Positions 2,788 to 37,059 of a DNA stretch of 38,764 nucleotides are shown here, piece after piece. The position numbers were made by a program, and so were the translations under genes. Every line of letters begins with the position of its first letter. The first letter of the stretch is position 1. The DNA comes from an uncultured Eubacteriales bacterium (GTDB lineage Bacteria > Bacillota > Clostridia > Oscillospirales > Oscillospiraceae): assembly GCA_900554855.1 (NCBI GenBank), contig USIZ01000001.1, forward strand, positions 1-38,764, in the 5' to 3' direction. The notes under the pieces were generated by a model that did no database searches, was not told the DNA's origin, and saw only the letters and a list, made by a program, of their open reading frames with translations.

Positions 2788-2800
2788 GTCCGATTCGGAC
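2788..2800. repeat. GTCCGATTCGGAC palindrome, copy 1
   Basis: Exact 13-mer in the non-coding region upstream of terS. Confidence 0.95.
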
Positions 2801-2927
2801 ACATTCCCCCGACGCACACGGCGGCGCTTGCGCCGCAGCGGGTTTGATCCTCCTGTCGGCGGCTCTGGCTGCCATGCGAGAGCCGCCGTGTGCGCCGGAT
2901 GGAAAGAAGCGGGAAAGGAGGAGCCTT

Positions 2928-3263
2928 ATGGAGCAGACAAAGGACTGGAGAAAAACCAAACAGTACCGGGAACTGAAAAAGTCCATGCTGGACAATCTGG
3001 AAGCCAGAGGCATTTTGGAAAAAGCGTACACCGACAAGGTGGACGAGTATCTGGACTTCTGGGTACGGCGGCAGGAATTGCAGACGGATGTGGCTGAGCG
3101 CGGTCTTTCCGTAATGGATGACCGGGGCCGCATTACGGAAAATCGCAGCGTGTCTTTGGAAATTCAGGTTGCCCGGCAAATGCTGGCCGTATGGACGGCA
3201 CTTGGCTTTAAGGACGCCGCCGCAAAATCGGACGTGCCGGGAGGCATGGACGATGAACTGTAA
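2928..3263 (+). CDS. terS: Terminase small subunit (P27-like)
   Basis: GGAAAGGAGGAG SD then ATG at 2928. Typical about 110-aa TerS sequence (MEQTKDWRKTKQYRELKKSMLDNLE...). Overlaps the terL start. Confidence 0.85.
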   Translation: MEQTKDWRKTKQYRELKKSMLDNLEARGILEKAYTDKVDEYLDFWVRRQELQTDVAERGLSVMDDRGRITENRSVSLEIQVARQMLAVWTALGFKDAAAKSDVPGGMDDEL

Positions 3264-4923
3264 GCTGCCGCCGGAGGTCCAGGCGTATCTGGAGGCGGTG
3301 GAGGCGGACAAGCCCCGGGCCTGCCCAGAGCAGCACGCCCTGGCGGCGCATATCCGGCGGTGCTTTGAGACAGAAGATCTGCTGGTAGATACAGAGCAGC
3401 TTCGGCGGTATTTGAGTTTGTCCCGCTATTTCCCGTATAAAGATCTTTTCCTGTGGGAGCAATTCCTGACGGCGCTTTGGATGTGCACCTACACTTCTGA
3501 CGGACGGCCCCGGTGGAAGACCCTGTTTTCCATGGTTGGCCGTGGCGCGGGAAAGGACGGCTTTATCGCATTTATCTCCATGTGCGCCACCTCTCCCTAC
3601 AACCCGGTTGGCAGCTACAACGTAGATATCTGCGCCAATAACGAGGAACAGGCCATGACGCCGGTGTTGGATCTGGTGAACACGCTGGAGCTACCCAAGA
3701 ACGAAGCGAAGCTGAAGCGGTTTTACTACCACACAAAGGAGCTGGTGCAGGGCCGAAAAAACCGGGGCGTGGTCAAGGGCCGCACCAACAACCCCAAGGG
3801 ACGGGACGGTATGCGCTCCGGCATGGTGATCTTTAACGAGGTCCACCAGTTTGAAAACTACAACAACATCAAGGTGTTTATTACCGGTCAGGGCAAGGTA
3901 GCTCAGCCCCGCGTGGGGATCTTTACCTCCAACGGCGAAGTCAATGACGGGCCTTTGGATGACTATCTGGCCAGAGGACGGCGGATCTTATTTGAAAACG
4001 AGCCGGACAACGGCTTTCTTCCCTTCATCTGCTGCGTGGAGACCCGGGAGCAGGTCCATGATCCGGAAAACTGGTACATGGCAAATCCATCCCTGTTTTA
4101 TCTGCCGGATCTATTTCAAGAAACGGCGGACGAATACCGGGACTGGGTGGAGCACCCGGAGCAAAACGGCGATTTTCTGACAAAGCGAATGGGCTTGCGG
4201 GCCGGATTTCAGGAGATCAGCGTGACAGACTATGAAAAGATCCTCAAGACCAATAAGCCACAGCCTGATCTGCGTGGCTGGACTTGCACGGTAGGGCTGG
4301 ACTATGCGGAGCTGAGCGACTGGGCGGCAGTCAACCTCCACTTCCGGCGAGGCGCAGACCGGTTTGACATCAACCACGCATGGATTTGCCTGCAATCCAA
4401 AACCCTGCCGCGGATCAAGGCTCCGTGGCAGACGTGGGCAAAGGAAGGACACCTGACGGCGGTGGATGATGTGAGCATCAGCCCTGATCTGATCGCGGCA
4501 TACATCCAGGACGCTGCCAGATGCTACAACATCAAGGCGCTGGCAATGGACCACTACCGGTGGACGCTGGTTTCCGAAAGTATGCGCGCCATCGGCTTTG
4601 ACGCGGCGGACAAGAACCGGGTAAAGCTGGTGCGGCCATCAGACATCATGCAGGTGGAGCCGGTGATCCAGGAATGCTTTGACCGGGAGCTGTTTTACTG
4701 GGGCGACCAGCCGCACCTTCGATGGGGCGTGAATAATACCAAGAGGGTCCGCAGCTCACGGAAGCAGGGTGTCGATACCGGAAACTTTATCTACGCCAAA
4801 ATTGAAGCGAAAAGCCGCAAGACAGACCCCTTTATGGCACTGGTGGCCAGCATGACGATCGAACCGCTGCTGGGCACCGGCGCTCCGCTGGCGGCCCCGC
4901 CGATAGGGGCCATCAGACTATAA
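3253..4923 (+). CDS. terL: Terminase large subunit
   Basis: Walker A-like GRGAGKDG. Size and position fit. ATG at 3253 overlaps the terS stop. Confidence 0.9.
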   Translation: MNCKLPPEVQAYLEAVEADKPRACPEQHALAAHIRRCFETEDLLVDTEQLRRYLSLSRYFPYKDLFLWEQFLTALWMCTYTSDGRPRWKTLFSMVGRGAGKDGFIAFISMCATSPYNPVGSYNVDICANNEEQAMTPVLDLVNTLELPKNEAKLKRFYYHTKELVQGRKNRGVVKGRTNNPKGRDGMRSGMVIFNEVHQFENYNNIKVFITGQGKVAQPRVGIFTSNGEVNDGPLDDYLARGRRILFENEPDNGFLPFICCVETREQVHDPENWYMANPSLFYLPDLFQETADEYRDWVEHPEQNGDFLTKRMGLRAGFQEISVTDYEKILKTNKPQPDLRGWTCTVGLDYAELSDWAAVNLHFRRGADRFDINHAWICLQSKTLPRIKAPWQTWAKEGHLTAVDDVSISPDLIAAYIQDAARCYNIKALAMDHYRWTLVSESMRAIGFDAADKNRVKLVRPSDIMQVEPVIQECFDRELFYWGDQPHLRWGVNNTKRVRSSRKQGVDTGNFIYAKIEAKSRKTDPFMALVASMTIEPLLGTGAPLAAPPIGAIRL

Positions 4924-4925
4924 CG

Positions 4926-4938
4926 GTCCGAATCGGAC
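4926..4938. repeat. GTCCGAATCGGAC palindrome, copy 2
   Basis: Between terL and portal, directly 5' of the portal SD. Extends to a 17-nt palindrome. Confidence 0.95.
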
Positions 4939-4955
4939 CGGAGAAAGGCTGAACT

Positions 4956-6152
4956 ATGGGATTGAGATTTTTTGAATGGCTGGCGGGAAAGGGCGGGCGA
5001 ACCGCCACAGCGGAGGTCTCCTGTCAGGAGCTATTGGCAGCGGCCGAAGACTTCCAGGCGCGGCAGCTTTCCTTCTGGACCTGCGTGAACATGGTGGCCA
5101 ACGCCGTGGGCCGCTGCGAGGTAAAGACCTTCCGGGGGCGGGAGGAGATCCAGGAGCAGGAGTATTACCTATGGAATGTGGAGCCCAACGTGAACCAGAA
5201 CAGCTCCGCCTTTTGGCACAAGCTGATCGCCAAACTGTTTTTGGACAATGAAGCGCTGGTGATCTCCAGTAAGCGGCGGGACGGCATGGACGCGGTGATG
5301 GTGGCGGACAGCTGGCAGCAGAGCACCTTCTGGCCGATGCGGATGAATGAGTACATTAACGTGACGGTGGGCGACACCGCCTATGAAAAAACCTTCCGGG
5401 AAAACGAGGTACTGCATTTAAAGCTCCACCACAACGCCATGCGCCCGGTGGTGGACGGTCTGTGCCAGTCCTACATGCGGCTGGTGGCAGCGGCTATGAG
5501 CCGCTATCAGTGGGAGCGTGGGCAGCACTGGAAGGTCCATGTTAATCAGATCGCATCGGGCACGCAGAATTTTGAGCAAAATTTTGCCAAGATCATCGAG
5601 CAGCAGATCAAACCGTTTTTTGGCAGCGGCGCGGCGGTGCTCCCGGAGTTTGACGGCTACGACTATCAGCAGGTCAATAAATCTGGCGATGGCAAGGTGG
5701 GCGACAGCCGGGACGTGCGGAACCTGATCGAGGACATTTTCGATTTTACCGCCCGGGGCTTTCTGATCCCCGCTGTGCTGGTGAACGGCACCGTTCAGGG
5801 CACAGCGGACGCCAACAGCCGTTTTCTGACCCAGTGTATTGACCCCATCTGCGATCAGCTCCAAGAGGAAATCACCCGAAAGCGGTATGGCTTTGACGGT
5901 TGGAAGCAGGGCAACTTTGTCCGGGTCGATTCCTCTGCTATCCTCCACTTTGACATGTTTGCCAACGCTGCCAACGTGGAAAAGCTGGTGGGCAGCGGCG
6001 CCTTCTCGGTCAACGATGTGCTGCGGGCGGCCAACCAGGCCACCATCAACGAGCCGTGGGCCGATGAACACTTTTTGACCCTGAACATTGCGCGGATCCA
6101 AGAAGCCGCGCAGCAGATGAATGCACAGAAAGGAGACAGCGGGAATGAGTAA
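4956..6152 (+). CDS. Portal protein (HK97 family-like)
   Basis: 398 aa, directly after terL, with SD GAGAAAGG. Confidence 0.85.
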   Translation: MGLRFFEWLAGKGGRTATAEVSCQELLAAAEDFQARQLSFWTCVNMVANAVGRCEVKTFRGREEIQEQEYYLWNVEPNVNQNSSAFWHKLIAKLFLDNEALVISSKRRDGMDAVMVADSWQQSTFWPMRMNEYINVTVGDTAYEKTFRENEVLHLKLHHNAMRPVVDGLCQSYMRLVAAAMSRYQWERGQHWKVHVNQIASGTQNFEQNFAKIIEQQIKPFFGSGAAVLPEFDGYDYQQVNKSGDGKVGDSRDVRNLIEDIFDFTARGFLIPAVLVNGTVQGTADANSRFLTQCIDPICDQLQEEITRKRYGFDGWKQGNFVRVDSSAILHFDMFANAANVEKLVGSGAFSVNDVLRAANQATINEPWADEHFLTLNIARIQEAAQQMNAQKGDSGNE

Positions 6153-6951
6153 TCCCAAGCAGAAGGACCGGAGAATGTGGGCGCTGAAGCAGCGGGCGGA
6201 GGACGCCAAGACACTGGAGCTTTACATCTACGGAGATGTGGAGGGCGACAGCTATGACTGGTGGACCGACGAGACGATCCAGAGCGAGACCAGCGCCAAC
6301 GCCTTCCGGGACGCTCTGGCGGAGCATCCGGAGGCGACGGAGATCGCCGTTTACATCAACAGCTACGGCGGCAGTGTATTTGAGGGCACGGCCATCTACA
6401 ACCAGCTCAAGCGGCACAGCGCCCACAAGACGGTGTATGTGGACGGCTTTGCTTGTTCCATCGCCTCGGTCATCGCAATGGCCGGCGACACGGTGGTGAT
6501 GCCGCGCAACGCACTCATGATGATCCACAACATGAGCATGGGTATTTACGGAAACGCAGCTGAGCTGCGAAAGGCCGCAGACAATCTGGACACCATCAAT
6601 CAGGCGGGGATGGAAGCCTATCTCCAAAAGGCCGGTGACAAGCTGGACCCGGATACCCTGAAGGAAATGTATGACGCGGAGACCTGGTTGACGGCGGAGC
6701 AGTGCATGGAGCTGGGATTGGCCGACCGCTACGCGGAAAAGGACGCGGACATGACCCAGGCTGCGGCTCTGCTGCAAAAGGCCAACCTGACCTTGGAGCA
6801 GCGGATCACCGTGCAGAAAAGCCTTGCCGCTCAGCTTCGGCAGTTGGCGGCGGACACTGGTCCTAAACCGCCTTGCCCCCCTGATCCGAAAGGCCCGGAG
6901 CCTCAGCCCGAACCCCAGCAGAAAAACCGTATTATGAGCCTGTTTGGCTAA
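6145..6951 (+). CDS. ClpP/S14-like head maturation protease
   Basis: INSYGGSVFEG and GFACSIASVIAMAGD motifs. ATG at 6145 follows AAAGGAGA and overlaps the portal stop. Confidence 0.85.
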   Translation: MSNPKQKDRRMWALKQRAEDAKTLELYIYGDVEGDSYDWWTDETIQSETSANAFRDALAEHPEATEIAVYINSYGGSVFEGTAIYNQLKRHSAHKTVYVDGFACSIASVIAMAGDTVVMPRNALMMIHNMSMGIYGNAAELRKAADNLDTINQAGMEAYLQKAGDKLDPDTLKEMYDAETWLTAEQCMELGLADRYAEKDADMTQAAALLQKANLTLEQRITVQKSLAAQLRQLAADTGPKPPCPPDPKGPEPQPEPQQKNRIMSLFG

Positions 6952-6969
6952 AAATGAAAGGAGAACACT

Positions 6970-8445: not shown

Positions 8446-8771
8446 TGGCGGATCGGAACAGCCTGCCGCCCGGCCTGCTGTCCGATGTGGAGAACTACCT
8501 GAACATCACCTGGAGCGATGAGGCCACGGATACCAAGGTATCCGGGCTCATCGCCTCCGGGATCGGGTACCTGGACAAGAAGGCCGGAAGCCCGCAGGAC
8601 TATACAGCGGACGGCGACGCACGGACGCTGCTGATGGAATACGTCCGCTACGCCAGAGACAGCGCCCTGGACGTGTTTGAAAACAACTATCAATCTCTCA
8701 TTTTGAGTATGCAGAGCGAAAGGCGGGTGAGCGCGTATGCCATGGAAAGCGCCGTATCGCCCTCGCCGTGA
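8445..8771 (+). CDS. Head-tail connector (gp6-like)
   Basis: ATG overlaps the capsid stop. Size and position fit. Confidence 0.7.
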   Translation: MADRNSLPPGLLSDVENYLNITWSDEATDTKVSGLIASGIGYLDKKAGSPQDYTADGDARTLLMEYVRYARDSALDVFENNYQSLILSMQSERRVSAYAMESAVSPSP

Positions 8772-9135
8772 CAGCGAGATTACTCAGACCTATTCCGACG
8801 GACTGGTCAAGGTCTATGCCGTTGCAGATACGGCGGCGCCGGGCTACAAGCCTGTGGAGGGTTTGACATTTAAGGCCGCTTTGCGATACGAGGAGCGGCG
8901 TCTTGGCATCCAGCGGTATTACGAGGGACGGCAGAATCAGGCTCAGATCGAGCGGGTGCTGCGGGTTCCACGGGTCCCCGGCGTGAGCAGCCAGGACGTG
9001 GCTGTGACGGAGGACGGCAAGCAGTACCGCATCGATCTGATCCAGACAACAACCGACGTTTTCCCGGAAAGCATGGATCTGACGCTGCTGCGGATTGAGC
9101 AGAAATACGAGGTGCCACATGACCACCTGGTATGA
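8737..9135 (+). CDS. Head closure / head-tail adaptor protein
   Basis: Position and size fit. Overlaps its neighbours. Confidence 0.65.
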   Translation: MPWKAPYRPRRDSEITQTYSDGLVKVYAVADTAAPGYKPVEGLTFKAALRYEERRLGIQRYYEGRQNQAQIERVLRVPRVPGVSSQDVAVTEDGKQYRIDLIQTTTDVFPESMDLTLLRIEQKYEVPHDHLV

Positions 9136-9436
9136 GCGAGTGATCGCCGCCCACCGAGCGGTGACAGACGCAGTGAGCCACGCCGTCCGGCTCAAATCCG
9201 ACCGCTATTTTGTGTGGCAAGAGGACGGCAGCCATGATCTTCCCGGAGACAACGGCCACGGAGAGACCGCCGTCACCGGCACCACGGATCTGTTTACCAA
9301 ATCCGAGTTTGACCCATGGGTTGAGCAGCTGGGCGAGAGTTTCAGCGCCCATGGCATTTCCTGGACGCTGAACTCCGTCCAGTACGAGGCGGACACCGGC
9401 TTTATCCACTACGAGTGGGTGTGGGAGGTGACCTAA
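9119..9436 (+). CDS. Hypothetical neck/tail-joining protein
   Basis: ATG at 9119 within the operon. Function assigned from position only. Confidence 0.5.
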   Translation: MTTWYERVIAAHRAVTDAVSHAVRLKSDRYFVWQEDGSHDLPGDNGHGETAVTGTTDLFTKSEFDPWVEQLGESFSAHGISWTLNSVQYEADTGFIHYEWVWEVT

Positions 9437-9924: not shown

Positions 9925-9930
9925 GCGCGT

Positions 9931-9943
9931 GTCCGATTCGGAC
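9931..9943. repeat. GTCCGATTCGGAC palindrome, copy 3
   Basis: Directly 5' of the major tail protein SD. Confidence 0.95.
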
Positions 9944-9961: not shown

Positions 9962-10558
9962 ATGGCAACCATTGGTTTGAGCAAGCCGTATTACGCTATT
10001 TATGCCGAAGCCGGCGGCGTGGTGAGCTATTCTGACGGTGCGGTAATGGGTAAGGCAACGGAGGCCAATATCTCCATTGAGACCACGGAGGACAACAACC
10101 TCTATGGCGACAACGGACTGGCGGAGACCGACCGCCGCTTTGCCAACGGCACCCTGACCCTGTCTACTACCGATCTGAGTCAGGAGGTCAGCAAGGCCAT
10201 TCTGGGCCTGACGGAGCAGGCGATCACCGGGATCGATGGCGTGACGGATACCTCCGTAAAGGAGCTGGTTTACGATGATACGCAGGTGACCCCCTATCTG
10301 GGCGTGGGTTTCATCATCAAGAAGAAGGTCAACGGCGCGTATAAGTGGCGGGGCGTGGTCCTGCCGAAGATCATGTTTTCCGTGCCGGAAGACGCGGCCA
10401 CCACGCAGGGTGAGTCCATCGAGTGGCAGACCCCGGAGCTGACCGGCGCCATCATGCGGGATGATTCCGCCACCCATGCCTGGAAAAAGGAAGCCACCTT
10501 TACTTCGGAGGCCCAGGCTGAGGCTTATATCAAGGCGCGGCTGGGGATCACCGCATGA
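9962..10558 (+). CDS. Major tail protein
   Basis: GAGAAAGGAG SD. About 200 aa, immediately upstream of the chaperone pair. Confidence 0.8.
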   Translation: MATIGLSKPYYAIYAEAGGVVSYSDGAVMGKATEANISIETTEDNNLYGDNGLAETDRRFANGTLTLSTTDLSQEVSKAILGLTEQAITGIDGVTDTSVKELVYDDTQVTPYLGVGFIIKKKVNGAYKWRGVVLPKIMFSVPEDAATTQGESIEWQTPELTGAIMRDDSATHAWKKEATFTSEAQAEAYIKARLGITA

Positions 10559-15410: not shown

Positions 15411-15423
15411 GTCCGATTCGGAC
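15411..15423. repeat. GTCCGATTCGGAC palindrome, copy 4
   Basis: Directly 5' of the fibre gene SD. Confidence 0.95.
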
Positions 15424-20442: not shown

Positions 20443-20517
20443 ACATCTGAAAGGAGGGCCAGAAGATGGCAACAACATCCACGCGGTTAATCCGCGCTCT
20501 GCAAGTCTGGATAACCC

Positions 20518-20754
20518 ATGGAAAAAACAAACCGAGAGATCCGGGCGCTGTTGTCATCCATGGCCCCGGCCCGAGCGGCGCAGGCCGTCCGGCTGGTAGG
20601 CTTGCCGCCTGACGAGGAAACGGCGGTGCTGGCGGTGGATGTCCACGGCCAAAGCTGCCTACAGGCGGCGGCGCTGCTCCACGTCAGCGTGGACGGGTTG
20701 GCCAAGATCCGGCGGCGCGCCTACGCCAAAATCGCGGATGATATGCAGGGATAA
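20518..20754 (+). CDS. Small sigma-70 region-4-like HTH protein (possible late regulator); 5' end uncertain
   Basis: CLQAAALLHVSVDGLAKIRRRAYAKI HTH. No SD before ATG 20518. A strong SD plus ATG sits at 20466 in another frame. Confidence 0.6.
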   Translation: MEKTNREIRALLSSMAPARAAQAVRLVGLPPDEETAVLAVDVHGQSCLQAAALLHVSVDGLAKIRRRAYAKIADDMQG

Positions 20755-20760
20755 AGAAAA

Positions 20761-20783
20761 GCCGTGTCCGAATCGGACACGGC
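20761..20783. terminator. Bidirectional terminator, 23-nt perfect palindrome
   Basis: GCCGTGTCCGAATCGGACACGGC flanked by an A-run and a T-run, between convergent genes. Confidence 0.85.
20766..20778. repeat. GTCCGAATCGGAC palindrome, copy 5
   Basis: Core of the bidirectional terminator. Confidence 0.95.
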
Positions 20784-20788
20784 TTTCC

Positions 20789-25798: not shown

Positions 25799-25837
25799 TG
25801 TGTTCAAAACTGTGTTCAGCCGGAAAATATGTGTTCA
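25799..25837 (+). repeat. Three TGTGTTCA boxes (putative arm-type sites, P' arm)
   Basis: Copies at 25799-25806, 25811-25818 and 25830-25837. Confidence 0.55.
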
Positions 25838-26869
25838 GAAGCCTTTCTCCATCTTTTCCGCAGCGGCCTTCAGCTGGCCGTCCCGGACGTGGGTGTAGAT
25901 GTCCATGGTGGTGGACAGCTGGGCGTGGCCAAGGAGCACCTGCGCCGTTTTAGGATCCACGCCGCTTTCCAGCAGGGCGGTGGCGTAGCCGTGGCGGATC
26001 TGGTGCGCCGTGACGGTGACGCCGCTGGCATCCCGGTAGGCATCGTACAGCGAGGTAAAGTGATCGTTTGTCAGGAGGCTGCCGTCCGGCTCCGCGAACA
26101 GGTAGCCTTTCCCCAGCTTTTTGGGGAGCAGCTTAGCCAGCGCCGGAAGAAGCGGAACGTCCCGGCATCCGGCGTCAGACTTCGGCTGCTTGATGTGGGG
26201 CGAGTTGCCTACATGATACACGGATTTTTTGATGTGCACAAGATTTTTCTTTCGGTCGATGTCGGCGCCGGTGAGGGCCAGCGCCTCACCACGGCGGCAG
26301 CCGGTGTAATAAACGAGGAAGGCGAACAGGCCGAAGGGGAGGCCTGCGCCTTTTTTTATGAGTTCAATCTGCTCCGGAGGGGGCGCGTCCCGGTGGGTCT
26401 GCGTCAGATTCCGGGGCGGCTTCACGGCGCTGGCCGGGTTGTAGCTTATAACGCCATCCACTTCGGCTTTGCGGAAGATCTGGCGGATGATCTGCAACTG
26501 GGTCACCACGGTTTTCCGGGCGCGGGTGGCGGCGAAGTCCTTGATATACTGGTCGATCTCCTTCGCGGTGATCTCGCCGGGTGCCCTCCCGGCAAATTCC
26601 GTCTTGGCCCGGGCCAGCGCCGGACGGTAGCTTTTTTGGGTATTGTGCTCTAAGGTCGGTTCGATCTCCGACCACCATGCGTCTGCGATTTTCTCAAATA
26701 CGGCGGCTTTTTCCGTTTCGATGCGGTCCGCCTCCCGGTCAAAGGCCTTGACCTTCTCCCAGACCTCTTTGTCGGTCTTCCCCCGGAAGGCCTTACGCTT
26801 GCCGTTGATCCGGAGGATGGTCTCGTGGAGGCCGTCAGGCCGGACGTAGTATTTCGGGTATCTTGCCAT
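25835..26869 (-). CDS. int: Tyrosine-type site-specific integrase
   Basis: R (CRRGEAL), HxxR (HQIRHGYAT) and Y (MDIYTH). Adjacent to attP. Confidence 0.9.
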   Translation of the reverse strand: MARYPKYYVRPDGLHETILRINGKRKAFRGKTDKEVWEKVKAFDREADRIETEKAAVFEKIADAWWSEIEPTLEHNTQKSYRPALARAKTEFAGRAPGEITAKEIDQYIKDFAATRARKTVVTQLQIIRQIFRKAEVDGVISYNPASAVKPPRNLTQTHRDAPPPEQIELIKKGAGLPFGLFAFLVYYTGCRRGEALALTGADIDRKKNLVHIKKSVYHVGNSPHIKQPKSDAGCRDVPLLPALAKLLPKKLGKGYLFAEPDGSLLTNDHFTSLYDAYRDASGVTVTAHQIRHGYATALLESGVDPKTAQVLLGHAQLSTTMDIYTHVRDGQLKAAAEKMEKGF

Positions 26870-28408: not shown

Positions 28409-28576
28409 ATGAGCAACCAGATCACCCGCACGGTGTCCGATTCGGACCGCGACCACATGACCCTGGCGCTCTATCGCCAGTTGACGCCGGAGGAGCGTGA
28501 GCAAGTCAACGCTTACCTCGCGCAGCTATTAGCATCTCGATATACTCCCGCGCCTTCTCCCGCTCCTCGCGGGTAA
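28409..28576 (+). CDS. Possible 55-aa ORF convergent with and overlapping the repressor 3' end
   Basis: GGGAGG SD 7 nt before the ATG. However, it overlaps 28506-28814(-) by 71 nt and no family was recognised. Confidence 0.3.
   Translation: MSNQITRTVSDSDRDHMTLALYRQLTPEEREQVNAYLAQLLASRYTPAPSPAPRG
28435..28447. repeat. GTCCGATTCGGAC palindrome, copy 6
   Basis: Between the secreted-protein gene and the repressor. Confidence 0.95.
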
Positions 28577-29433: not shown

Positions 29434-30012
29434 ATGGAACGAAAGTACCCGAATTTGTACCAGAGGGCAAGGCTGAGTACCGGGTTGACGCAGGAGCGTG
29501 CAGCGGAGCTGCTTGGACTGTCCCCGGAAAGTCTGAAACAGTACGAGGGCGGCAAGACGGTGCCCAAGGACGAGACGGTGGCCAAGATGGTGGAGGTGTA
29601 CAGCTGCCCATGGCTGGCATTGGAGCACGCGCAGGCCACGGACACGCTGGGCGTAATGCCGGAGGTGACGCCAAGGCCTCTGCCAATGGCGAGCATCGCC
29701 CTTCGGAACCGTCTGCAAGACGCGACGGGCCGGCTGGACGCCCTGCTCCGGATCGCGGAGGACGGCGTGATCGACGAGGCTGAGCGGCCGGAGTTTGATG
29801 ACATCGTCCTGGAGCTGAGGGATACCATGGCGGCCATCTATCAGGTGATCTACTCAGGCGCAAAAAAAGAACGCCCCGAGGCGGCAACCTCAGAGCGTTC
29901 AGGGGAAAAAGTGTGTGGTATTGGATCAACCACTGGATGTTTCAATTATAGCACAAGATCCACGCTGCACGCAAGCCCTAATTTTTGCCGGGAAGGGGGC
30001 GCATCCCTGTGA
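29434..30012 (+). CDS. XRE HTH regulator with C-terminal helical domain
   Basis: ARLSTGLTQERAAELLGLSPESLKQYEGG. AAGGAGG SD. The last ~45 aa look like low-quality read-through. Confidence 0.7.
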   Translation: MERKYPNLYQRARLSTGLTQERAAELLGLSPESLKQYEGGKTVPKDETVAKMVEVYSCPWLALEHAQATDTLGVMPEVTPRPLPMASIALRNRLQDATGRLDALLRIAEDGVIDEAERPEFDDIVLELRDTMAAIYQVIYSGAKKERPEAATSERSGEKVCGIGSTTGCFNYSTRSTLHASPNFCREGGASL

Positions 30013-30164
30013 CCGGTTGGGCAATGTTTTTCATGGTTGTCGGCGTGGCGACGGTGGCGGCGATCCCGCTGCGGATCGTGGATCGGATGGAGAGATAGTG
30101 GTATTGGCGGATTGCGAAGGGCAACGTAGATTTCCGTATAATTTGTGGAATTTGAGGTGATCGC

Positions 30165-30665
30165 ATGAGCAATAGCGTTCCTCTGCGCCAATGGTATATA
30201 GAGCATAAAATATGCGTTTCCTGCGGACAGCGTGATGCATTCAACGGGCGCCAAAAGTGCCCAGAATGTTTAGAAAAAGCGACGCTAAATAACATAAAAT
30301 ACAGGAGCCTCGAAAGGGAACGCAACTATTACCAGAGAAGAAAAGAAAAGCGGGATGCCCGTATATCCGCTGGATTATGCCCAATCTGTGGCAAAGCGGC
30401 AGTAAAAGGTCAACTGTGCCTTGAGTGCTATATGAAACATCAGAGAAGGCATGAAAAAGAGAAGCAACAACGCGCATTGCGCGGAGACCCTCGTAGAGAA
30501 CGTATTAAAAATGGGCTGTGTTGGTTTTGTGATTCTCCGGCTTTAGAAGGGAAAAAGGTTTGTCAAAAACACTACGACGATATTCAGGCAAGATTTCACA
30601 ACAGAGGAGGGGATGAACACCCGTGGGCAAAAGACGAAGCGGTGAGGCGTGCAAAACTCAAATAG
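30165..30665 (+). CDS. Multi-CxxC zinc-ribbon protein
   Basis: Four CxxC...CxxC/H units separated by basic helices. GAGGTGA SD. Confidence 0.7.
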   Translation: MSNSVPLRQWYIEHKICVSCGQRDAFNGRQKCPECLEKATLNNIKYRSLERERNYYQRRKEKRDARISAGLCPICGKAAVKGQLCLECYMKHQRRHEKEKQQRALRGDPRRERIKNGLCWFCDSPALEGKKVCQKHYDDIQARFHNRGGDEHPWAKDEAVRRAKLK

Positions 30666-31459
30666 AGTCTTTCCGTGAGCATTTAGAGGACAAAGAGCTA
30701 TCTGATAATACCGTAAGGGCTTACATAACTGCGATGGAACAGTTCTTTTCATCATTTGCGGAAATATCAAAGAAGAACGGCCTCGATTGGAAACGGGAAC
30801 TGCAAGAAAAAGGATTGAAAGCGAAATCTATCAACATTAAGCTCAATGCCTTTAATTCGTTCTGCGGGATGGTCCACGATGATGGAAGCAAAGTCAAGAC
30901 GATGCGCGTCCATCAGGCTACAGCTGTTAGTAATGTTATATCCGAACAAGACTACAAAAAGCTGCTGGATGGATTGAAAAATGATGGAAATATGCGCTGG
31001 TATTACAATATCAAGTTGCTTGCTTCAACTGGCGCCCGTGTGAGTGAGTATGTGCGGCTTAAAAAAACAGATTTTTCAAGAGGATACGCGGAAATGTGGA
31101 CGAAAGGAAAAATTAGAAGGATTTACATTCCGAAGTCATTTCTGAATGAAGCTGATGGATATTATTCGAGTTTTGAGCCGGACGATTTTCTTGCCGTTGG
31201 AAGAGACGGAGGCCCAATCACGACCAGAGGCGTTTCACAAATGCTTATGACGTTCGCTGCACGGTATGGAATTGATAAAAAAGTCATGCATCCACACTCT
31301 TTTCGGCACATGTTTGCAATTCAGTTTCTGCGGCGTAATAACAACCTATCTCTGCTGGCTGATGTTCTCGGACATTCCAGCGTTTCAACAACGGCAATTT
31401 ATACTCGGATGACAAAAGAGCAGCAGCAGGACGCAGTTAATAAAACAATCAATTGGTAG
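30623..31459 (+). CDS. Second tyrosine recombinase (Xer/Cre-like, small)
   Basis: R (TGARVSEY), HxxR (HSFRHMFA) and Y (TAIYTR). GTG start overlaps the upstream gene. Confidence 0.8.
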   Translation: MGKRRSGEACKTQIESFREHLEDKELSDNTVRAYITAMEQFFSSFAEISKKNGLDWKRELQEKGLKAKSINIKLNAFNSFCGMVHDDGSKVKTMRVHQATAVSNVISEQDYKKLLDGLKNDGNMRWYYNIKLLASTGARVSEYVRLKKTDFSRGYAEMWTKGKIRRIYIPKSFLNEADGYYSSFEPDDFLAVGRDGGPITTRGVSQMLMTFAARYGIDKKVMHPHSFRHMFAIQFLRRNNNLSLLADVLGHSSVSTTAIYTRMTKEQQQDAVNKTINW

Positions 31460-31468
31460 GTGAAAGAA

Positions 31469-31792
31469 ATGGATATTGAAAGGCTTTACAAGAATTTTAT
31501 AGATGCTGGCCAACAGCCGTGTAGCAGAGGAGATTCTCAGCGCGGAATCAAAATGCATCAGTATAGGACTGCAAAACAGCAGTTGTTTGAAGCTTTAAAA
31601 GATGACTATTTCGCTGGGAAATTATGCTCTGTTTTGGCAGATGAGCTTGTTCAAACAATTTCTGAATCAACGCAGAATCCGGAATGCTTCTGGGGATCTC
31701 CCAGAACCGCTAAGAGTAATCAAGCAATCTTTGTATATGAAAAGAATGAACGTCTGTTTGAAGAACTTCTGCGATGCTGGTTGGAAAGATAA
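31469..31792 (+). CDS. Hypothetical protein
   Basis: ATG at 31469 follows AGGTGA. Same AT-rich composition as the recombinase. Confidence 0.55.
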   Translation: MDIERLYKNFIDAGQQPCSRGDSQRGIKMHQYRTAKQQLFEALKDDYFAGKLCSVLADELVQTISESTQNPECFWGSPRTAKSNQAIFVYEKNERLFEELLRCWLER

Positions 31793-31801
31793 GGGGGCAA
31801 T

Positions 31802-32563
31802 ATGGCAAGGTATGACTGCGGCTATGGGGCATGGATCCCCGGCCCGGTTTTGGACGATCCGGGGCTTCGGCCCCGGTCGCTGATCCTATACGCACGGATC
31901 GCGCGGCGGGCCAACCGGGTGGGATTCTGCTACGCAACCAACGCAACGCTGATCGAGGACATGACTGCCGTGGACGAGGACGGCTCCGTGCGGGTGCTGT
32001 CTGAGCGGACGGTCCAGTCTATGCTGGCGGAGCTGCAAGAGCGGGGACACATTCACACGGATAACGGCCCCCTTCCTCCGGATAAAAGCGGCACGGTGCG
32101 GACCGGTCGGCGGATTTATATTGGGCGCTCTCTGGCATCGGTCCCGGACGATGCGCAGGGGGGTGAAGAAAATTTCACCCCTGAAAAAATCTGCACCCCA
32201 GGGGTGAAGAAAATTTCACCCCCCTTTAAATGTATAAAAGATAATAATAAAAATACCCCTATAGCCCCCTGCGCAGATGCGCACTTCGATTTGTTTTGGT
32301 CGGCGTATCCCCGCCATGTGGACAAGCAGCGGGCGCGGAAGGCCTGGGCGAAACTGAAGCCGGACGAGGCGCTGGTGGAAACCATTCTCCGGGCGGTGAA
32401 GGCACAGGCAGCCTGTGAGCAGTGGACCCGGGACGGCGGGGCGTACATCCCCTATCCCGCCACATGGCTCAACGGCCGCCGGTGGGAGGACGAGCTGCCG
32501 GGGCGGTCCGAATCGGACCGGGGCGGTGAGAGCTGGGAGGCAGGTGACACGGATGGAATTTAA
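31802..32563 (+). CDS. Replication organizer/initiator-like protein (N-terminal winged-helix)
   Basis: LILYARIARRANRVGFCYATNATLIEDM... wHTH-like. C-terminal FWSAYPRHVDKQRARKAW motif. Lies upstream of the helicase. Confidence 0.65.
   Translation: MARYDCGYGAWIPGPVLDDPGLRPRSLILYARIARRANRVGFCYATNATLIEDMTAVDEDGSVRVLSERTVQSMLAELQERGHIHTDNGPLPPDKSGTVRTGRRIYIGRSLASVPDDAQGGEENFTPEKICTPGVKKISPPFKCIKDNNKNTPIAPCADAHFDLFWSAYPRHVDKQRARKAWAKLKPDEALVETILRAVKAQAACEQWTRDGGAYIPYPATWLNGRRWEDELPGRSESDRGGESWEAGDTDGI
32160..32257. repeat. Putative ori: two 22-nt palindromic iterons plus an AT-rich stretch inside the initiator gene
   Basis: GGGGTGAAGAAAATTTCACCCC at 32160-32181 and 32201-32222. AT-rich at 32225-32257. 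Confidence 0.6.
32506..32518. repeat. GTCCGAATCGGAC palindrome, copy 7
   Basis: Inside the initiator gene 3' end, encoding RSESDR. Confidence 0.95.
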
Positions 32564-33863
32564 AGCAGCTATGGAGCAGGCCAGCAAATACCTGACCTTC
32601 TCACCGGCTTTTATTGATCCGGAAAAACCGCAAGGTCTCTGGATCTGCGATACCGTTGTGGAGGCGGCGGCTATTCGGGAGAATGCCGTGTGCCTTGGAC
32701 TGGGGTGCAGCTGGGATGATGTGGTGCGCTGCCGTCCGTTTTTAGAGGCGTTCCCCTATCTGGTGATCGTCACCGCCAACGCTATCGCCAGAGAGCGGAT
32801 GGTGGCGGAACTGCGCCCCCGGCTCCCGGCCAGCTGTATATACGTCGTTACCGATGCCGGCTGGCGGAACTGTAAGACCGTTGAGGACTATGTGGCCCTG
32901 TACGGAGCGGCCCACCTCCCGGATATCCTATCCGGAGCGGAGGAGCTGCCCGCCTATGGCTTGCTGAATCTGGCGGAAGTCCCCCGGCGGGACATGAGCA
33001 AGATTCCCCGGACCCTCTCCCGGTTTTCCGTGCTTGACAGCAGCATCGGCGGGTTTTACTCCGGGGAGTTGTCCGTTTGGACCGGCAAGCGAGGCATCGG
33101 CAAGAGCACGCTGCTGAGCCAGATGCTTTTAGAGGCTTTGGATCAAGGACACACCGTCTGCGCGTATTCCGGTGAGCTGCCGAAGGAGCAGTTCCGGGAG
33201 TGGACATATCTGCAAGCGGCGGGTCCCGAGCACATCCGGTACATCACGGATCAGGCCACTGGGAAAAAACTGGCATCCGCGGACGCTCTGGCGGACAAGC
33301 AGATCTCCGAGTGGCTCAACGAGCGATTCTGGCTCTTTGACTTGGAGCGCAACACCCGGCACGATCCGGAGACCATTCTGCGGCAGTTTGAGTACGCCCA
33401 CATGCGCTACAACGCAGATGTATTTCTGGTCGATAACATCATGTCCGTGGACTTTGACAACTCCACAGAGCGGGACTTCAACCGTGTGCAGTCAAAATTC
33501 ACGCAAATGCTGGTAACCTTCTCCAAGCGCCGGGGTGTCCACACCCATCTGGTGGTGCACCCTCGGAAATCTACCAGTGACAATAACGCTAAAATCACCT
33601 CAGACGATGTCAGCGGTTCCGGAGACATCACCAACCGGGCAGACAATGTGTTTTTTCTCACCACCCATCAGACGGACGGCAAGGAAAAGCCTCTGCTGCA
33701 GATCCTGAAGAACCGGGACTACGGCTCCCACAGACACCAGTGGCTTGACTTCGACAAGAAATCCCGTCGTTTCTTTCAGGATCAGACCGGGGACCCTAAG
33801 CGGGCTTACGGCTGGGAGGGACGCGGCGTCCAGATGGAGCTAGCTTGTGGAGGATCGCGGTGA
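32553..33863 (+). CDS. DnaB-family-like replicative helicase with Toprim-like N-terminal region
   Basis: Walker A GKRGIGKST, Walker B-like FLVDNIM, and the RecA-like C-terminal half. Confidence 0.75.
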   Translation: MEFKAAMEQASKYLTFSPAFIDPEKPQGLWICDTVVEAAAIRENAVCLGLGCSWDDVVRCRPFLEAFPYLVIVTANAIARERMVAELRPRLPASCIYVVTDAGWRNCKTVEDYVALYGAAHLPDILSGAEELPAYGLLNLAEVPRRDMSKIPRTLSRFSVLDSSIGGFYSGELSVWTGKRGIGKSTLLSQMLLEALDQGHTVCAYSGELPKEQFREWTYLQAAGPEHIRYITDQATGKKLASADALADKQISEWLNERFWLFDLERNTRHDPETILRQFEYAHMRYNADVFLVDNIMSVDFDNSTERDFNRVQSKFTQMLVTFSKRRGVHTHLVVHPRKSTSDNNAKITSDDVSGSGDITNRADNVFFLTTHQTDGKEKPLLQILKNRDYGSHRHQWLDFDKKSRRFFQDQTGDPKRAYGWEGRGVQMELACGGSR

Positions 33864-33896
33864 CATTGACGAGGTTTTCCCGGAGGAAAAGAAAAC

Positions 33897-34145
33897 ATGA
33901 AAATCGGAGATATCTTGAGCATCGAGCCGACGCTGGAGGCGACCAGCGGGCTGGACACGTCCACGCTGGCCTCGATCACGGCGCGGGTGATCTACATCCA
34001 CCCGGCGGGGCGGTACTACACGGTGGAGTTCCGCAGTCCCATCACTGGCTACAACTGGCGGGAGGCCTTCTGGACGAAACTGGAACCGCAGCCGAAGAAC
34101 TGGCGGGGCCAGCCGCATTTTAAGGCCGTAAGCACTGCGGTCTGA
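33897..34145 (+). CDS. Hypothetical protein
   Basis: GGAGGAAAAG SD. Confidence 0.5.
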   Translation: MKIGDILSIEPTLEATSGLDTSTLASITARVIYIHPAGRYYTVEFRSPITGYNWREAFWTKLEPQPKNWRGQPHFKAVSTAV

Positions 34146-34171
34146 CGCAAACACAAGGGGGAAAGGTGAAC

Positions 34172-34945
34172 ATGAAAACAATCGCGGTATTGAATTTCAA
34201 GGGCGGGGTCGGCAAGACCGTCACCACCGCCACGCTGGCGTATCTGCTGGCGAAGCAGGGCAAGCGGATCCTGTTGATTGACGGGGACAGTCAGGGCAAT
34301 CTGAGCATGTCCTTCGGGATCGACGCGGATGAGGGCGCGGACACGCTGGCCCTCCTGACCGAGGGCGCCGGGTACTATCCGGAGTTTGTGACGCCCACCA
34401 TTTTTGACGGGATCGACCTGATCCCCTCTGACATCAACCTGCTGGTGGCAGACCGGCACATGGCCCAGAGCGGCGTAGGCCGGATGCAGCGGGCCATCGC
34501 GGATCTGCGGGACGCCATTGAGGAGGACGCGGATCAGGACAACGCCTACGATCTTATCCTGATCGACTGCCCTCCGGCGCTGTCGGCAGCCTGCACGGCG
34601 GCGCTGGCCGCTGCGGATGAGGTGATCATCCCCATCCGGCTGGATTACTACTCCACCGGCGGCATGGCCAATCTGGCGGAGCAGCTCCAGCACATGCGGG
34701 CCATCAACCCCCGGTTGTCGGTGCTGGGCGTGCTGGTGACGCAGTTCACCCACATGGCGGACGAAAAGGAGGCCCTCGCGGCCATCCGGAGCGGTGCGCT
34801 GCCGGTGTTTGAGACGGTGATTCGGTTCTCCAAGGCCGTGCCCAGCGCGACCTTCCAGAAGGTCCCGCTGCCGGTGGCCCGTCCCTACTGCGCGGCCAGC
34901 AAGGACTACGCCGAGCTGGTGAAAGAGATCTCCGGGAGGTGCTGA
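34172..34945 (+). CDS. parA: ParA/Soj-type partition ATPase
   Basis: Deviant Walker A motif NFKGGVGKT. Confidence 0.9.
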   Translation: MKTIAVLNFKGGVGKTVTTATLAYLLAKQGKRILLIDGDSQGNLSMSFGIDADEGADTLALLTEGAGYYPEFVTPTIFDGIDLIPSDINLLVADRHMAQSGVGRMQRAIADLRDAIEEDADQDNAYDLILIDCPPALSAACTAALAAADEVIIPIRLDYYSTGGMANLAEQLQHMRAINPRLSVLGVLVTQFTHMADEKEALAAIRSGALPVFETVIRFSKAVPSATFQKVPLPVARPYCAASKDYAELVKEISGRC

Positions 34946-34947
34946 GG

Positions 34948-36345
34948 ATGGAAAAGCGGAAATTTAACGTGATGGACGTGCTAGGCGAGCAGCTGGCCGG
35001 CGTGGCGGACACCATGATGGAGATCCCGGTTGACGATATCCGGGACAATCCCCGGAACTTTTACCCGACGCCTGACTCTCAAGCGCTGCGGGCCTTGATG
35101 GACTCCATCCGGGCCAACGGCCTTTTGGAGCCGCCTACGGTGGTCCCCGCCGGTGACGGTAGCTATCGTCTGATCTCCGGCCACAGCCGTCTGGCTGCCA
35201 TTAAGGCCCTCCGGGAGACGGAAACACCGGATCAGTGGGCAACCGTGCTTTGCCGGGTGCTGCCCCCCATGTCGGAGGGGCAGGAGCAGGCGGCGGTGAT
35301 CGAGGCCAACCGCCAGCGGGTGAAGTCCAATGCCCTGCTGGCCGATGAGGCGGAGCGTCTGACGGAGGCCTACATCAAGCGCCGGGAGGCCGGTGAGCAG
35401 CTTCCGGGGCGCATCCGGGACTATGTGGCGGAGGCCCTGCAAGTCAAAGCCACCAAAATCGCCAACCTGTCGGCCATCAAGAACGGCCTGAAAGTGCCGG
35501 GACTGGTGGAACGCTGGAAGCGGGACGAGATCCCAGAGGCAGCGGCCTTGCAGATCGCCCGGATGGACATCGACGAGCAATACCGGCTGCTGGACTGGAT
35601 CATCGACAAGAGACGGAGCTGCACCATCAACGAGGTGCGGAAGTTTTCCACTTGCTACACAGTGACGCGCCGGAAGTGTGAGCACACCGGCCGGATGTGC
35701 GAGAATGCGGAGCGGATGTACGATCATGACTACCGATACGGCGAGTGGCACGGCTCCAACTGCTGCCTGTCCTGTCTGGACCGGGACACCTGCCCGGCGG
35801 CCTGCAAGTATGTGGAGAAAAAGCCGGTGGAGCAGCCGGAAAAACCGCCGCTGAATCCGGCGGCGAAGGACCCAAGGCTGGACTACAAGGTGATGGTTCC
35901 GACCTTCTGCCAGCGGGTGAAGGAGCTGCGGATCCAGACCGGCATGACCCGGAAGGAATTTGCCCAGAGCATTGACGAGTTCCCCGGAACGTACAGCGCG
36001 TGCGAGAACAACTCCATGTGCGGATCGGAGAAAATCGCCAAGCTGGCGCTGTGCTTTGGCGTCAGCACTGATTACCTCTACGGCCTGACGGATGAGTTGA
36101 CCCCGCCGACGCTGCCGGAGGGCCAGCTGATGATCGCCGGATGGATGCCCGGCAGCACTACTCCGGCGGAGCCGGGAGAGTTTGCGGCCTATGTGGACCT
36201 GGGTGACGGGAAGCTGCTGAAACGGTTTTTTGACTGGGATGGCCAACACTGGATGATGCCAGGCGGCATTGAGGCCCAGGCCCCCGTGGTTTGGTGGATG
36301 CGGCTGCCGCCTGTCCCAGCGGCAGGGAAAGGAGCGGACACATGA
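34948..36345 (+). CDS. parB: ParB N-terminal domain protein fused to a Cys-rich region, an XRE HTH and a DUF551-like tail
   Basis: RLISGHSRLAAIKAL ParB box. ELRIQTGMTRKEFAQSI HTH. Starts 3 nt after the parA stop. Confidence 0.8.
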   Translation: MEKRKFNVMDVLGEQLAGVADTMMEIPVDDIRDNPRNFYPTPDSQALRALMDSIRANGLLEPPTVVPAGDGSYRLISGHSRLAAIKALRETETPDQWATVLCRVLPPMSEGQEQAAVIEANRQRVKSNALLADEAERLTEAYIKRREAGEQLPGRIRDYVAEALQVKATKIANLSAIKNGLKVPGLVERWKRDEIPEAAALQIARMDIDEQYRLLDWIIDKRRSCTINEVRKFSTCYTVTRRKCEHTGRMCENAERMYDHDYRYGEWHGSNCCLSCLDRDTCPAACKYVEKKPVEQPEKPPLNPAAKDPRLDYKVMVPTFCQRVKELRIQTGMTRKEFAQSIDEFPGTYSACENNSMCGSEKIAKLALCFGVSTDYLYGLTDELTPPTLPEGQLMIAGWMPGSTTPAEPGEFAAYVDLGDGKLLKRFFDWDGQHWMMPGGIEAQAPVVWWMRLPPVPAAGKGADT

Positions 36346-36458
36346 GATATACAGGGCGCGGAAAGCGCCGCAGCCGGGTCTTCCCGGTGCTGACTCTGGC
36401 GGCCGCCGTGGCTGCCGTGATCCTTCTGACGGTAGCGGCCAAGGGTGTGGCCCTATGA
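36342..36458 (+). CDS. 38-aa basic/hydrophobic membrane peptide
   Basis: ATGA overlaps at both ends (36342-36345 and 36455-36458). GGAAAGGAG SD. Confidence 0.45.
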   Translation: MRYTGRGKRRSRVFPVLTLAAAVAAVILLTVAAKGVAL

Positions 36459-36667
36459 TCGCGCCTCCGTGCCTAAACTGCCCGGATCGCCGGATCGGGT
36501 GCCATGATCCGGCGGTTTGCCCCCAGTGGGCGGCCTATGATGAGATCCATCGGGCAGAGCTGGCGGCCATGCCGTCCTACAGAGAGCGGGAGGACATGGT
36601 AGAGTATATCAAGGACAGGCGGCGGCGCTACATGCCGGGCCGCTGGAAAAAGGAGAAATCATGCTGA
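36455..36667 (+). CDS. Small Cys-rich protein
   Basis: CLNCPDRRIGCHDPAVC. Confidence 0.5.
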   Translation: MIAPPCLNCPDRRIGCHDPAVCPQWAAYDEIHRAELAAMPSYREREDMVEYIKDRRRRYMPGRWKKEKSC

Positions 36668-37059
36668 ATCATATCGTACTGATGGGGCGTTTGACCCGTG
36701 ACCCGGAGCTGCGGCATACCGGAAACGGAACCGCTGTGGCGTCCTTCTCTCTGGCGGTCGACCGGGACTATAAGGGCCAGTCCGGCGAGAAGGAGCCGGA
36801 CTTCGTGGACATCGTGGCGTGGCGCTCCACGGCGGACTTCGTGAGCAAGTTTTTCACCAAGGGCCGCATGGCCGTGGTGGAGGGCCGCTTGCAGATCCGG
36901 GACTGGAAGGACAAGGACGGGAACAACCGGCGCTCCGCTGAAGTGGTGGCGGAGCATGTGTATTTTGGCGATAGCAAGCGGTCCGAATCGGACACGCCGC
37001 CTGCGTCAGGGGACTTCCGGGAGATCCCGGAGGATGAGGAAGGAGAGCTGCCATTTTGA
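36661..37059 (+). CDS. ssb: Single-stranded DNA-binding protein
   Basis: OB-fold N-terminus MLNHIVLMGRLTRDPELR and acidic tip EEGELPF. Confidence 0.92.
   Translation: MLNHIVLMGRLTRDPELRHTGNGTAVASFSLAVDRDYKGQSGEKEPDFVDIVAWRSTADFVSKFFTKGRMAVVEGRLQIRDWKDKDGNNRRSAEVVAEHVYFGDSKRSESDTPPASGDFREIPEDEEGELPF
36981..36993. repeat. GTCCGAATCGGAC palindrome, copy 8
   Basis: Inside the ssb linker, encoding RSESDT. Confidence 0.95.

Follow-up and report, generated by a model that had tools for sequence, protein, structure and literature searches.

What reads a 13-nt perfect palindrome that recurs from one end of a phage genome to the other, and in what form is it read? The question is raised by contig USIZ01000001.1 (assembly GCA_900554855.1) of an uncultured Eubacteriales bacterium of the Oscillospiraceae, whose full 38,764 nucleotides we refer to as the window, and in which a pattern search finds the palindrome GTCCGAWTCGGAC exactly eight times where none is expected. 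The window is a whole contig from a 1.72-Mb metagenome bin that is 74% complete, and PHROG and Pfam scans identify it as a temperate siphovirus-type genome. Our analysis predicts that the motif is probably a protein-binding site on duplex DNA. The phage's own ParB-family protein, encoded beside a ParA-type ATPase, is its putative reader, a proposal that we hold about as readily as its contrary.

A sequence-only reading of this DNA had reported eight copies, four with central AAT and four with central ATT, and our search reproduces the number, the coordinates and the split. Because the motif is palindromic, the two versions are one site read from opposite strands. The same reading had considered a given 13-mer unexpected even once by chance in 38.7 kb, in agreement with which the motif occurs 0 times in 100 dinucleotide-preserving shuffles of the window. 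Allowing two mismatches adds a single site, at 2398, which is at chance level. The eight sites and their surroundings are as follows.

2788 to 2800, centre ATT: site 1, where the late operon starts, in a conserved non-coding region with 127 nt left before terS (2928)
4926 to 4938, centre AAT: site 2, 2 nt past the terL stop (4923) and 17 nt before the portal ATG (4956), with the Shine-Dalgarno sequence (SD) between
9931 to 9943, centre ATT: site 3, 6 nt past the stop of the neck/tail-completion gene (9924) and 18 nt before the ATG of the major tail protein (9962)
15411 to 15423, centre ATT: site 4, 2 nt past the stop of a tail gene of 703 amino acids (aa) (15408) and 11 nt before the ATG of a 347-aa open reading frame (ORF) (15435)
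20766 to 20778, centre AAT: site 5, at the tip of a bidirectional intrinsic terminator (about 20758-20786) that closes the late/lysis operon
28435 to 28447, centre ATT: site 6, at the head of the early operon, within a conserved 55-aa ORF (28409-28576), where it reads V-S-D-S-D
32506 to 32518, centre AAT: site 7, in the C-terminal tail of the DnaD-like replication organiser (31802-32563), read S-E-S-D, about 35 nt before the helicase start
36981 to 36993, centre AAT: site 8, in the linker/tail of SSB (36661-37059), read S-E-S-D, 636 nt downstream of parB

These contexts agree for the most part with the sequence-only reading. Of the three copies that it had placed directly before the SD of structural genes, those at the portal and major tail protein stand, and the third precedes a 347-aa ORF, for which the label "fibre" is at most putative. 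The copy said to form the core of a terminator indeed lies at the tip of one, with a 13-bp stem followed by a T-run (-22.7 kcal/mol, z -6.6), and relatives show the same arrangement. The two copies said to lie in coding regions, at 32506 and 36981, are read as described; their number may be three rather than two, with the copy at 28435 in the 55-aa ORF. At site 1 the flanking sequence keeps about 95% identity even where a relative's structural module is unrelated, an orthologue of the site exists between HNH and terS/terL in distant lineages, and in these lineages copies also lie upstream of cro-like early genes, comparable to site 6.

The symmetry of the site extends beyond its 13 bases. The flanks of the window copies are degenerate and nonetheless symmetric, with G/T before the motif and A/C after it, and then CG outward on both sides, which gives an extended, two-fold symmetric form of 13-21 bp, (CG)(T)-GTCCGA-W-TCGGAC-(A)(CG). 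The centre is GAWTC, so that the GANTC remarked on earlier is indeed there. GANTC is under-represented in the window as a whole, with 73 found versus 137 +/- 11 in shuffles, and 8 of the 73 fall inside the palindrome copies; the depletion suggests pressure from a GANTC-directed host restriction system.

The site is under strong purifying selection. Across 64 aligned pairs, each consisting of a window site and its orthologue in one relative, the rate of difference is 1.4% of cells (11/768) at the 12 outer positions and 5.7% in the flanks, which bears out the earlier suggestion of selection at the DNA or RNA level. The central base differs in 37.5% of the 64 pairs and is always A or T; site 2, for instance, has ATT in relatives G006 and G007 at the identical terL/portal junction. 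The orientation of the site is thus effectively randomised, most simply via hairpin-mediated inversion of a perfect palindrome, and such an inversion can be neutral only where the two orientations are equivalent. Where copies lie inside genes, they all use a single frame, xxG TCC GAW TCG GAC, giving Ser-Glu/Asp-Ser-Asp (codon-model gene calls, 23 genomes). There are about 60 such instances at no fewer than 10 independent positions, including the SSB tail, the DnaD-like C-terminus, the ParB N-terminus, a tape-measure-like protein and proteins of 108, 204 and 353 aa. This is as expected of a fixed DNA word that is tolerated in coding sequence solely as a polar, acidic linker peptide. The placements at gene junctions and at the terminator are, likewise, best read as permissive spots for a fixed 13-mer in a tightly packed genome.

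The copies are also more evenly spaced than random points on a circle, with window gaps of 2.1-7.7 kb (P=0.001), the widest of which (20.8-28.4 kb) corresponds to the cargo and lysogeny block. Spacing is similarly even in two relatives with a different structural module, G005 (P=0.006) and G017 (P=0.001); in G013, which has the window-type structural module, evenness is not significant.

Is the palindrome read as duplex DNA or as a hairpin? In distant lineages position 2 and its mirror, position 12, vary independently, and lineages with a ParB recognition helix of the form S[KR]SKLARL (class C) have 30 hybrid, 18 C/C and 1 T/T sites. At 28 orthologous positions, read on the rep/sense strand, the pair-breaking combination C..A occurs six times and the wobble pair T..G also six times. 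That C..A is not depleted argues against an RNA or single-stranded DNA hairpin; it favours recognition of the two half-sites on duplex DNA by a symmetric protein dimer. At about -5.7 kcal/mol the core hairpin is weak, and for three of the eight copies shuffled sequence folds just as well. Several copies have added flanking complementarity (z -2.6 to -3.7), and only the terminator copy is strongly structured, being the one of the eight with an extended stem and T-run. Pairing-preserving covariation and a U-tract, the hallmarks of intrinsic terminators and structured RNA, do not characterise the set. The strand orientation of single-mismatch variants gave no significant signal, with G5-to-A split 7 to 2 and the others mixed. 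Among the roles proposed from the sequence, a site for a dimeric phage regulator is consequently the best supported, given dyad symmetry that includes the flanks, independent half-sites, a neutral centre and even spacing, and a stabilising or processing stem-loop is weakened.

The motif is specific to the phage lineage. There are 0 copies of GTCCGAWTCGGAC in the remaining 1.68 Mb of the host bin, and among 300 host-family genomes 30 hold 1-3 copies, for a total of 38 versus 10 for a reversed control pattern, a level near background. Absent from the rest of the bin and near background in the host family, the motif is not a host REP-like or uptake-like repeat, as the sequence-only reading had proposed among its options; its own suggested count in the host thus shows no host-wide equal frequency. 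The companion count in related phages gave the opposite outcome. A ParB-seeded scan of IMG/VR yielded 21 related contigs, some of them classed as proviruses and others circular contigs with terminal repeats, and 6-9 exact copies are present in 12 of the 13 relatives with a completeness of at least 90%; G015 has 4 and G008 (94% complete) has 1. A 15-mer scan of IMG/VR returned many single chance matches, and only multi-copy records were assigned to the family, while a ParB scan of genome contigs returned just two short fragments of metagenome-assembled genomes.

The sites do not follow the head and tail genes. Relatives G001, G005, G016, G017 and G018 have no detectable terminase, portal, capsid or tail genes in common with the window, yet carry 6-9 copies, and the copies in such unrelated structural modules lie again before SDs, in short protein linkers or at the tip of a bidirectional terminator. 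Conversely, GenBank phages with related structural genes (MT835558, MT835717 and MT836205) have 0 or 1 copy of the exact motif, by which we reject a tie between the motif and the head/tail genes; MT835558 has three copies of GTCCAATTCGGAC. An otherwise unrelated 40.8-kb phage, G060 (L156 + L157), has neither Rep nor ParB and shares with the window a tail-lysis-cargo block (about 11.1-25.1 kb, 63-100% protein identity), in which its only 2 palindromes lie. Further afield, an alignment of Rep-like proteins gave 65 loci, some with a Rep just 35-65% and a ParB just 25-30% identical. Many of these lineages have a sister motif, cggt-G[C/T]CCGA-N-TCGG[G/A]C-accg, in 3-9 copies per genome. At L184, L188 and L190 the sole copy lies within a protease gene, far from rep. 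Two other distant loci, L219 and L220, have three copies of a different palindrome, CCGCAA-NN-TTGCGG, and 0-1 copy of a GCCCGA-type site.

The genes that matter for the identity of the reader, all of them on the plus strand, are these.

34166 to 34945, plus strand: ParA-type Walker ATPase (phrog_164, 5e-65; AAA_31, 2e-43; CbiA)
34948 to 36345, plus strand: multidomain ParB-family protein, with a ParB N-terminal domain, a helix-turn-helix (HTH), a Cys-rich segment, an XRE-type HTH and a W-rich DUF551-like tail
668 to 1372, plus strand: HUH rolling-circle Rep-like protein, 234 aa (phrog_3584; motifs FYSLNF / HIHAFL / YFTKE)
29434 to 30012, plus strand: XRE-type regulator, 192 aa, conserved across the wider family
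20518 to 20754, plus strand: sigma-70 region 4-like protein (gp78), 78 aa, directly before the terminator copy

The parA stop lies no more than 3 nt from the parB start, and by homology the protein at 34948-36345 is a genuine relative of ParB, Spo0J and Noc. It carries the canonical ParB HTH (..VKATKIANLSAIKNGL..), scores 27.0 bits against Pfam ParB_N with a cut-off of 26.3, and is matched over residues 14-231 by Spo0J, ParB and Noc structures at E 4e-7 to 1e-4; its HTH, ..ATKIANLSAIK.., lines up with the ParB recognition helix. Within the family the protein is a mosaic, in which two N-terminal/HTH types (about 38-40% identity) are fused to a near-identical C-terminal domain of about 85 aa, W-rich and DUF551-like. 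The ParB of G013 is without the Cys-rich and XRE segments.

The sequence-only reading did not link the motif to the ParA and ParB genes, and several observations now suggest such a link. No other repeat array was found near parAB. In almost all lineages a copy lies at codons of about 17-21 of parB, though ParB identity drops to 25-30%, and the amino acids there shift (S/P, D/G) following the DNA word. The half-site type, furthermore, tracks the class of the aligned ParB recognition helix: position 2 is T/T in 76/79 sites with helix class K[AS]TK[IV]AN and in 45/48 with THGSKLARI, C/C in 14/14 with SKSKLSRL, and mixed with S[KR]SKLARL. The candidates that remain are ParB, the HUH Rep and the 192-aa XRE regulator, of which ParB is the best candidate.

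Other proteins of the phage were rejected, gp78 as a general reader. The CI-like repressor ranges over 38-98% identity among genomes with an identical motif. The gp78 protein is missing from G008, G015, G050, G052, G061 and MT835558, which have fewer or decayed copies, and could on this pattern have been taken for the reader; G060, however, has gp78 at 98% identity and only 2 copies, both in the shared module, and of 25 distant genomes in which the site family persists, 22 have no gp78. Its named homologues are from Dysosmobacter and Caudoviricetes metagenome-assembled genomes, which points to a gut bacterium of Oscillospiraceae type as the host. As a gene call, its ORF has no obvious SD, and a strong SD with ATG at 20466 opens another, Gly/Pro/Ala-rich frame, so that the start given for gp78 is provisional and a frameshift may be involved. 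The XRE HTH inside ParB is unlikely to be the reading domain, since the G013 ParB is without it and that genome has 8 exact copies.

A number of observations weigh against ParB. The gene is inherited together with the HUH Rep, the XRE regulator and the cro-like gene as one module, for which reason both the co-occurrence with the sites and the correlation between helix and half-site are confounded by ancestry, and Rep clades track the motif type as well as the ParB classes do. Loci L196 and L199 have ParB helix classes D and E, respectively, and the same CC motif (local identity in high-scoring segment pairs is about 40%, a rough figure from partial matches), and type A and type B ParBs differ in their recognition helix yet share the TT site. 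In the window itself no copy lies at the 5' end of parB, the closest ones being 636 nt downstream and 1.6 kb upstream. Box II of the CTP-binding (cytidine triphosphate) domain reads SGHSRLAA (SGHRRRAA in type B/C), that is GHSR/GHRR and not GERRxRA. As the phage has an integrase, a partition role is not obviously needed, and copies directly before SDs and at the terminator tip would suit a role in RNA too. Finally, G008 (L029 + L030; IMG/VR 3300013936_000141), a circular genome of 35.3 kb in which ParA, ParB and Rep are intact, has besides its one exact site only about five degenerate ones. Every change in these is C>T or G>A, and one site is doubly and symmetrically changed (GTTCGAATCGAAC). 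Loss of ParA as the cause of this decay can be dismissed, since parA is merely split over the ends of the circular contig and Rep and ParB are intact; the genome is also without the window's lysis/gp78 block and integrase.

Could another protein of the same early module be the reader? Operators for a different dimeric DNA-binding protein, either the 192-aa XRE regulator or the cro-like protein, would form a roadblock or operator network like that of stoperators, and the evidence for a dimer on double-stranded DNA serves this proposal equally. Both genes are found across the wider family, and copies head the early operon (28435, and upstream of cro in distant lineages) as well as the late operon (2788). 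However, regulators of the XRE type usually use few operators clustered near their own gene, and even spacing over a whole genome is not expected of promoter operators. No copy is consistently adjacent to the XRE or cro-like genes, whereas parB embeds one in most lineages, and the cro-like protein is just 36% identical in G013, which still has 8 exact copies; we consider the proposal unlikely. The HUH Rep leads to a different proposal, in which the palindromes are its hairpin or cruciform targets, either as a phage-scale analogue of REP/RAYT or as multiple nick or origin sites. Its HUH and Tyr motifs are intact, indeed invariant, in all 21 relatives aligned, a Rep is present in every site-bearing genome apart from G060, whose copies are confined to the module shared with the window, the Rep clades follow the motif type, and centre inversion is frequent enough to show that hairpin extrusion of the palindrome does take place from time to time. 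Against this, HUH enzymes cut one strand at asymmetric sites, and a perfectly symmetric site would be cut on both; the hybrid half-sites that break the stem are not depleted, and the 3-nt loop leaves scant room for a nick site. The distant loci whose sole copy is in a protease gene speak against it as well, as does G004, where rep is disrupted, perhaps recently, and 8 exact copies are present. We regard a Rep target as quite improbable.

An RNA hairpin at cistron junctions, serving as a stabiliser of mRNA, a processing signal, a translation insulator or a site for a phage RNA-binding protein, would account for the three window copies, and more in unrelated structural modules, that lie 0-4 nt before an SD, for the copy at the terminator tip, and for the flanking complementarity of several copies. 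Yet positions 2 and 12 lack covariation, with C..A as frequent as wobble on the sense strand, where the commonest single variant (G5 to A) breaks a pair and the loop base swaps freely between A and U. All 12 stem bases are conserved in sequence, beyond what mere pairing asks for, the bare hairpin is as weak as described above, and the even spacing and the copy in a convergent non-coding gap better fit a role at the level of DNA, so we give an RNA element little credence. Even less is left for a target of restriction-modification or methylation, or a host-factor site, such as GANTC-centred methylation or an anti-restriction decoy, which we consider scarcely credible. The GAWTC centre and the avoidance of GANTC elsewhere, which suggests a GANTC-directed host system, had made a modification- or restriction-related site worth naming at the outset, and the commonest form of site decay is a CpG transition. 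But a site of 13-21 bp far exceeds the 4-8 bp of restriction-modification targets, any central base is allowed in distant lineages, no methyltransferase was seen among the ORFs scanned, the motif is not in excess in the host bin or host family, and phages normally shed restriction targets rather than conserve them.

If ParB is instead taken as the reader, what could the sites do? Under the mechanism that we infer, which extends to CTP binding by ParB and to the biological outcome, the eight copies would be dispersed parS-type sites, similar to the operators of the plasmid protein KorB, for a phage ParA-ParB system. At each site a dimer of the ParB encoded beside the ParA ATPase would be loaded; if it behaves as CTP-dependent ParB clamps do, it would then spread or slide a few kb, so that with sites every 4-6 kb it might cover nearly the whole genome. 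As outcomes, non-integrated copies could be positioned or segregated by ParA, the early and late lytic operons could be silenced in the manner of KorB, or both. In its widest form the proposal would be that a clade of integrating temperate siphophages of gut Oscillospiraceae uses ParA-ParB(CTP) loading sites as a genome-wide clamp that silences both lytic operons. The sites would be written in frame into protein linkers and into gene junctions, and the same sites would serve in the partition of excised or plasmid-state copies. Site and recognition helix would co-evolve, from GTCCGA to GCCCGA, which could create incompatibility or immunity groups independent of the CI repressor. This combined picture is tentative, and we would sooner doubt than assert it as a whole.

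The rest of the genome is organised as follows. The HUH Rep-like gene sits just upstream of the packaging genes and is followed by HNH, terS, terL (3253/3118-4923), portal, protease and major capsid protein genes. Next come the major tail protein (9962-10558), the tape measure, further tail genes, the endolysin and gp78, then the cargo block, a 344-aa integrase (25835-26869, minus strand) and, beside it, the CI-like repressor. The cro-like and XRE regulators, the DnaD-like organiser, a DnaB-like helicase, ParA, the ParB-family protein and SSB complete the order, and the phage thus has a DnaD/DnaB/SSB module in addition to its Rep. Two further features were seen. An AT-rich cassette at 30100-31800 contains a second, small tyrosine recombinase and a zinc-ribbon protein, and among the relatives compared it is present only in G004, G006 and G013. 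At 2310-2450, within the 740-nt non-coding stretch that separates HNH from terS, a unit of about 51-55 nt is repeated in tandem about 2.5 times, a candidate cos/pac or terS-binding region.

Why would the identity of the reader matter? Several phage groups, such as the Cluster O mycobacteriophages, show dispersed short palindromes without an assigned reader, and it is only on plasmids, namely for KorB on RK2, that regulation over long distances by ParB-family clamps is so far understood. The present phage family offers a tractable natural series, with a 13-mer that stays constant in about 20 mosaic genomes, its sister version GCCCGA in relatives, hybrids of the two, a single site found with two ParB helix types, and G008 with its decaying sites. 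If ParB is the reader, common gut temperate phages would organise or silence their whole genome with a partition-type clamp, they would show how such sites fit coding sequence, always as Ser-Asp/Glu-Ser-Asp, and the T/C at position 2 would be a specificity switch. Site networks of the ParB/KorB type are known as such; the one proposed here would be a variant of them in integrating gut phages.

Comparison with known systems of dispersed sites helps to place these palindromes. Targets of restriction-modification are a poor match, the site here being 13-21 bp and enriched in a genome in which GANTC is depleted. REP/RAYT systems share with this phage dispersed short palindromes and an HUH-family protein in the same genome. 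However, REPs are imperfect, asymmetric and present in hundreds of chromosomal copies, whereas here a perfect palindrome is restricted to the phage, with no copy in the rest of the host bin, its half-sites vary independently, and stem-breaking hybrids are not depleted. Closer to hand are the stoperators of Cluster A and the Start-Associated Sequences (SAS) of Cluster K, both of them 13-bp phage repeats (PMC3203893), which like the present motif are found through the genome and often in short gaps between stop and start codons. Stoperators lack symmetry, follow the direction of transcription and are bound by the immunity repressor; the site described here is a perfect palindrome, and the CI-like repressor varies while the motif stays constant. 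SAS contain the SD and are tied to start codons, whereas here some copies precede an SD and none contains one.

A 17-bp dyad repeat, TGTTCGG-NNN-CCGAACA, is present in more than 30 copies in Cluster O mycobacteriophages, where its authors predicted binding by a dimeric DNA-binding protein and its function is unknown (PMC4351075). As in this phage, the inverted arms are invariant, the centre is free, the repeats are dispersed over the genome with many intergenic copies and about a third inside genes, and the phages encode a protein with a ParB-like domain. They differ in being without ParA or integrase, in not being obviously temperate, and in having more copies, for which even spacing was not reported.

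By protein sequence, the nearest systems are the chromosomal Spo0J/ParB and Noc proteins of Firmicutes. Their parS sites and Noc-binding sites (NBS) are palindromic, multi-copy and often inside genes, as here. In B. subtilis one parS lies within the parB (spo0J) gene itself, a parallel to the parB 5' copy of the window's relatives. The chromosomal systems differ in the sequence of their palindromes and in having an even number of bases, 16 bp in parS and 14 bp in NBS, against the odd length and W/N centre of the present site, and in box II, which is GERR in Spo0J, ParB and Noc versus GHSR/GHRR in this phage family. Among phages, the closest analogue would be the plasmid-prophage N15, whose SopA/SopB system has, as far as the account in PMC7205306 goes, four separate centromere inverted repeats, IR1-4 (Ravin & Lane 1999). 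On that account, N15 resembles this phage in being temperate and in having single palindromes scattered in phage genes rather than a tandem centromere, with a ParB-type reader that is putative in our case. By the same account the N15 prophage, a linear plasmid in E. coli, does not integrate and has 4 sites, whereas this phage has an integrase and 8 evenly spaced sites, which lie in frame in coding linkers and at gene junctions, and the proteins are only distantly related.

In mechanism, the closest analogue would be KorB and its O_B operators, of which the plasmid RK2 carries twelve. KorB of this IncP plasmid is a ParB-family CTP clamp that acts at O_B operators with the core TTTAGCGGCTAAA (PMC11790492). 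The two systems differ in the sequence of the site and in the element that carries it, here a tailed temperate Oscillospiraceae phage with an integrase; no KorA-like clamp-locking partner was identified in this phage, and its ParB has an added Cys-rich segment, XRE HTH and DUF551-like domain. What they have in common is considerable. Both sites are 13-bp perfect palindromes with a free central base, and occur some ten times across a mobile element of 40-60 kb, in part inside genes or far from promoters; the window has 8 over 38.8 kb, in linkers, at junctions and at a terminator. Both elements encode a ParA-type ATPase and a ParB-family protein, the latter a putative reader here, and by analogy the phage protein, too, may load at its sites and then slide, and so combine long-range silencing with partition.

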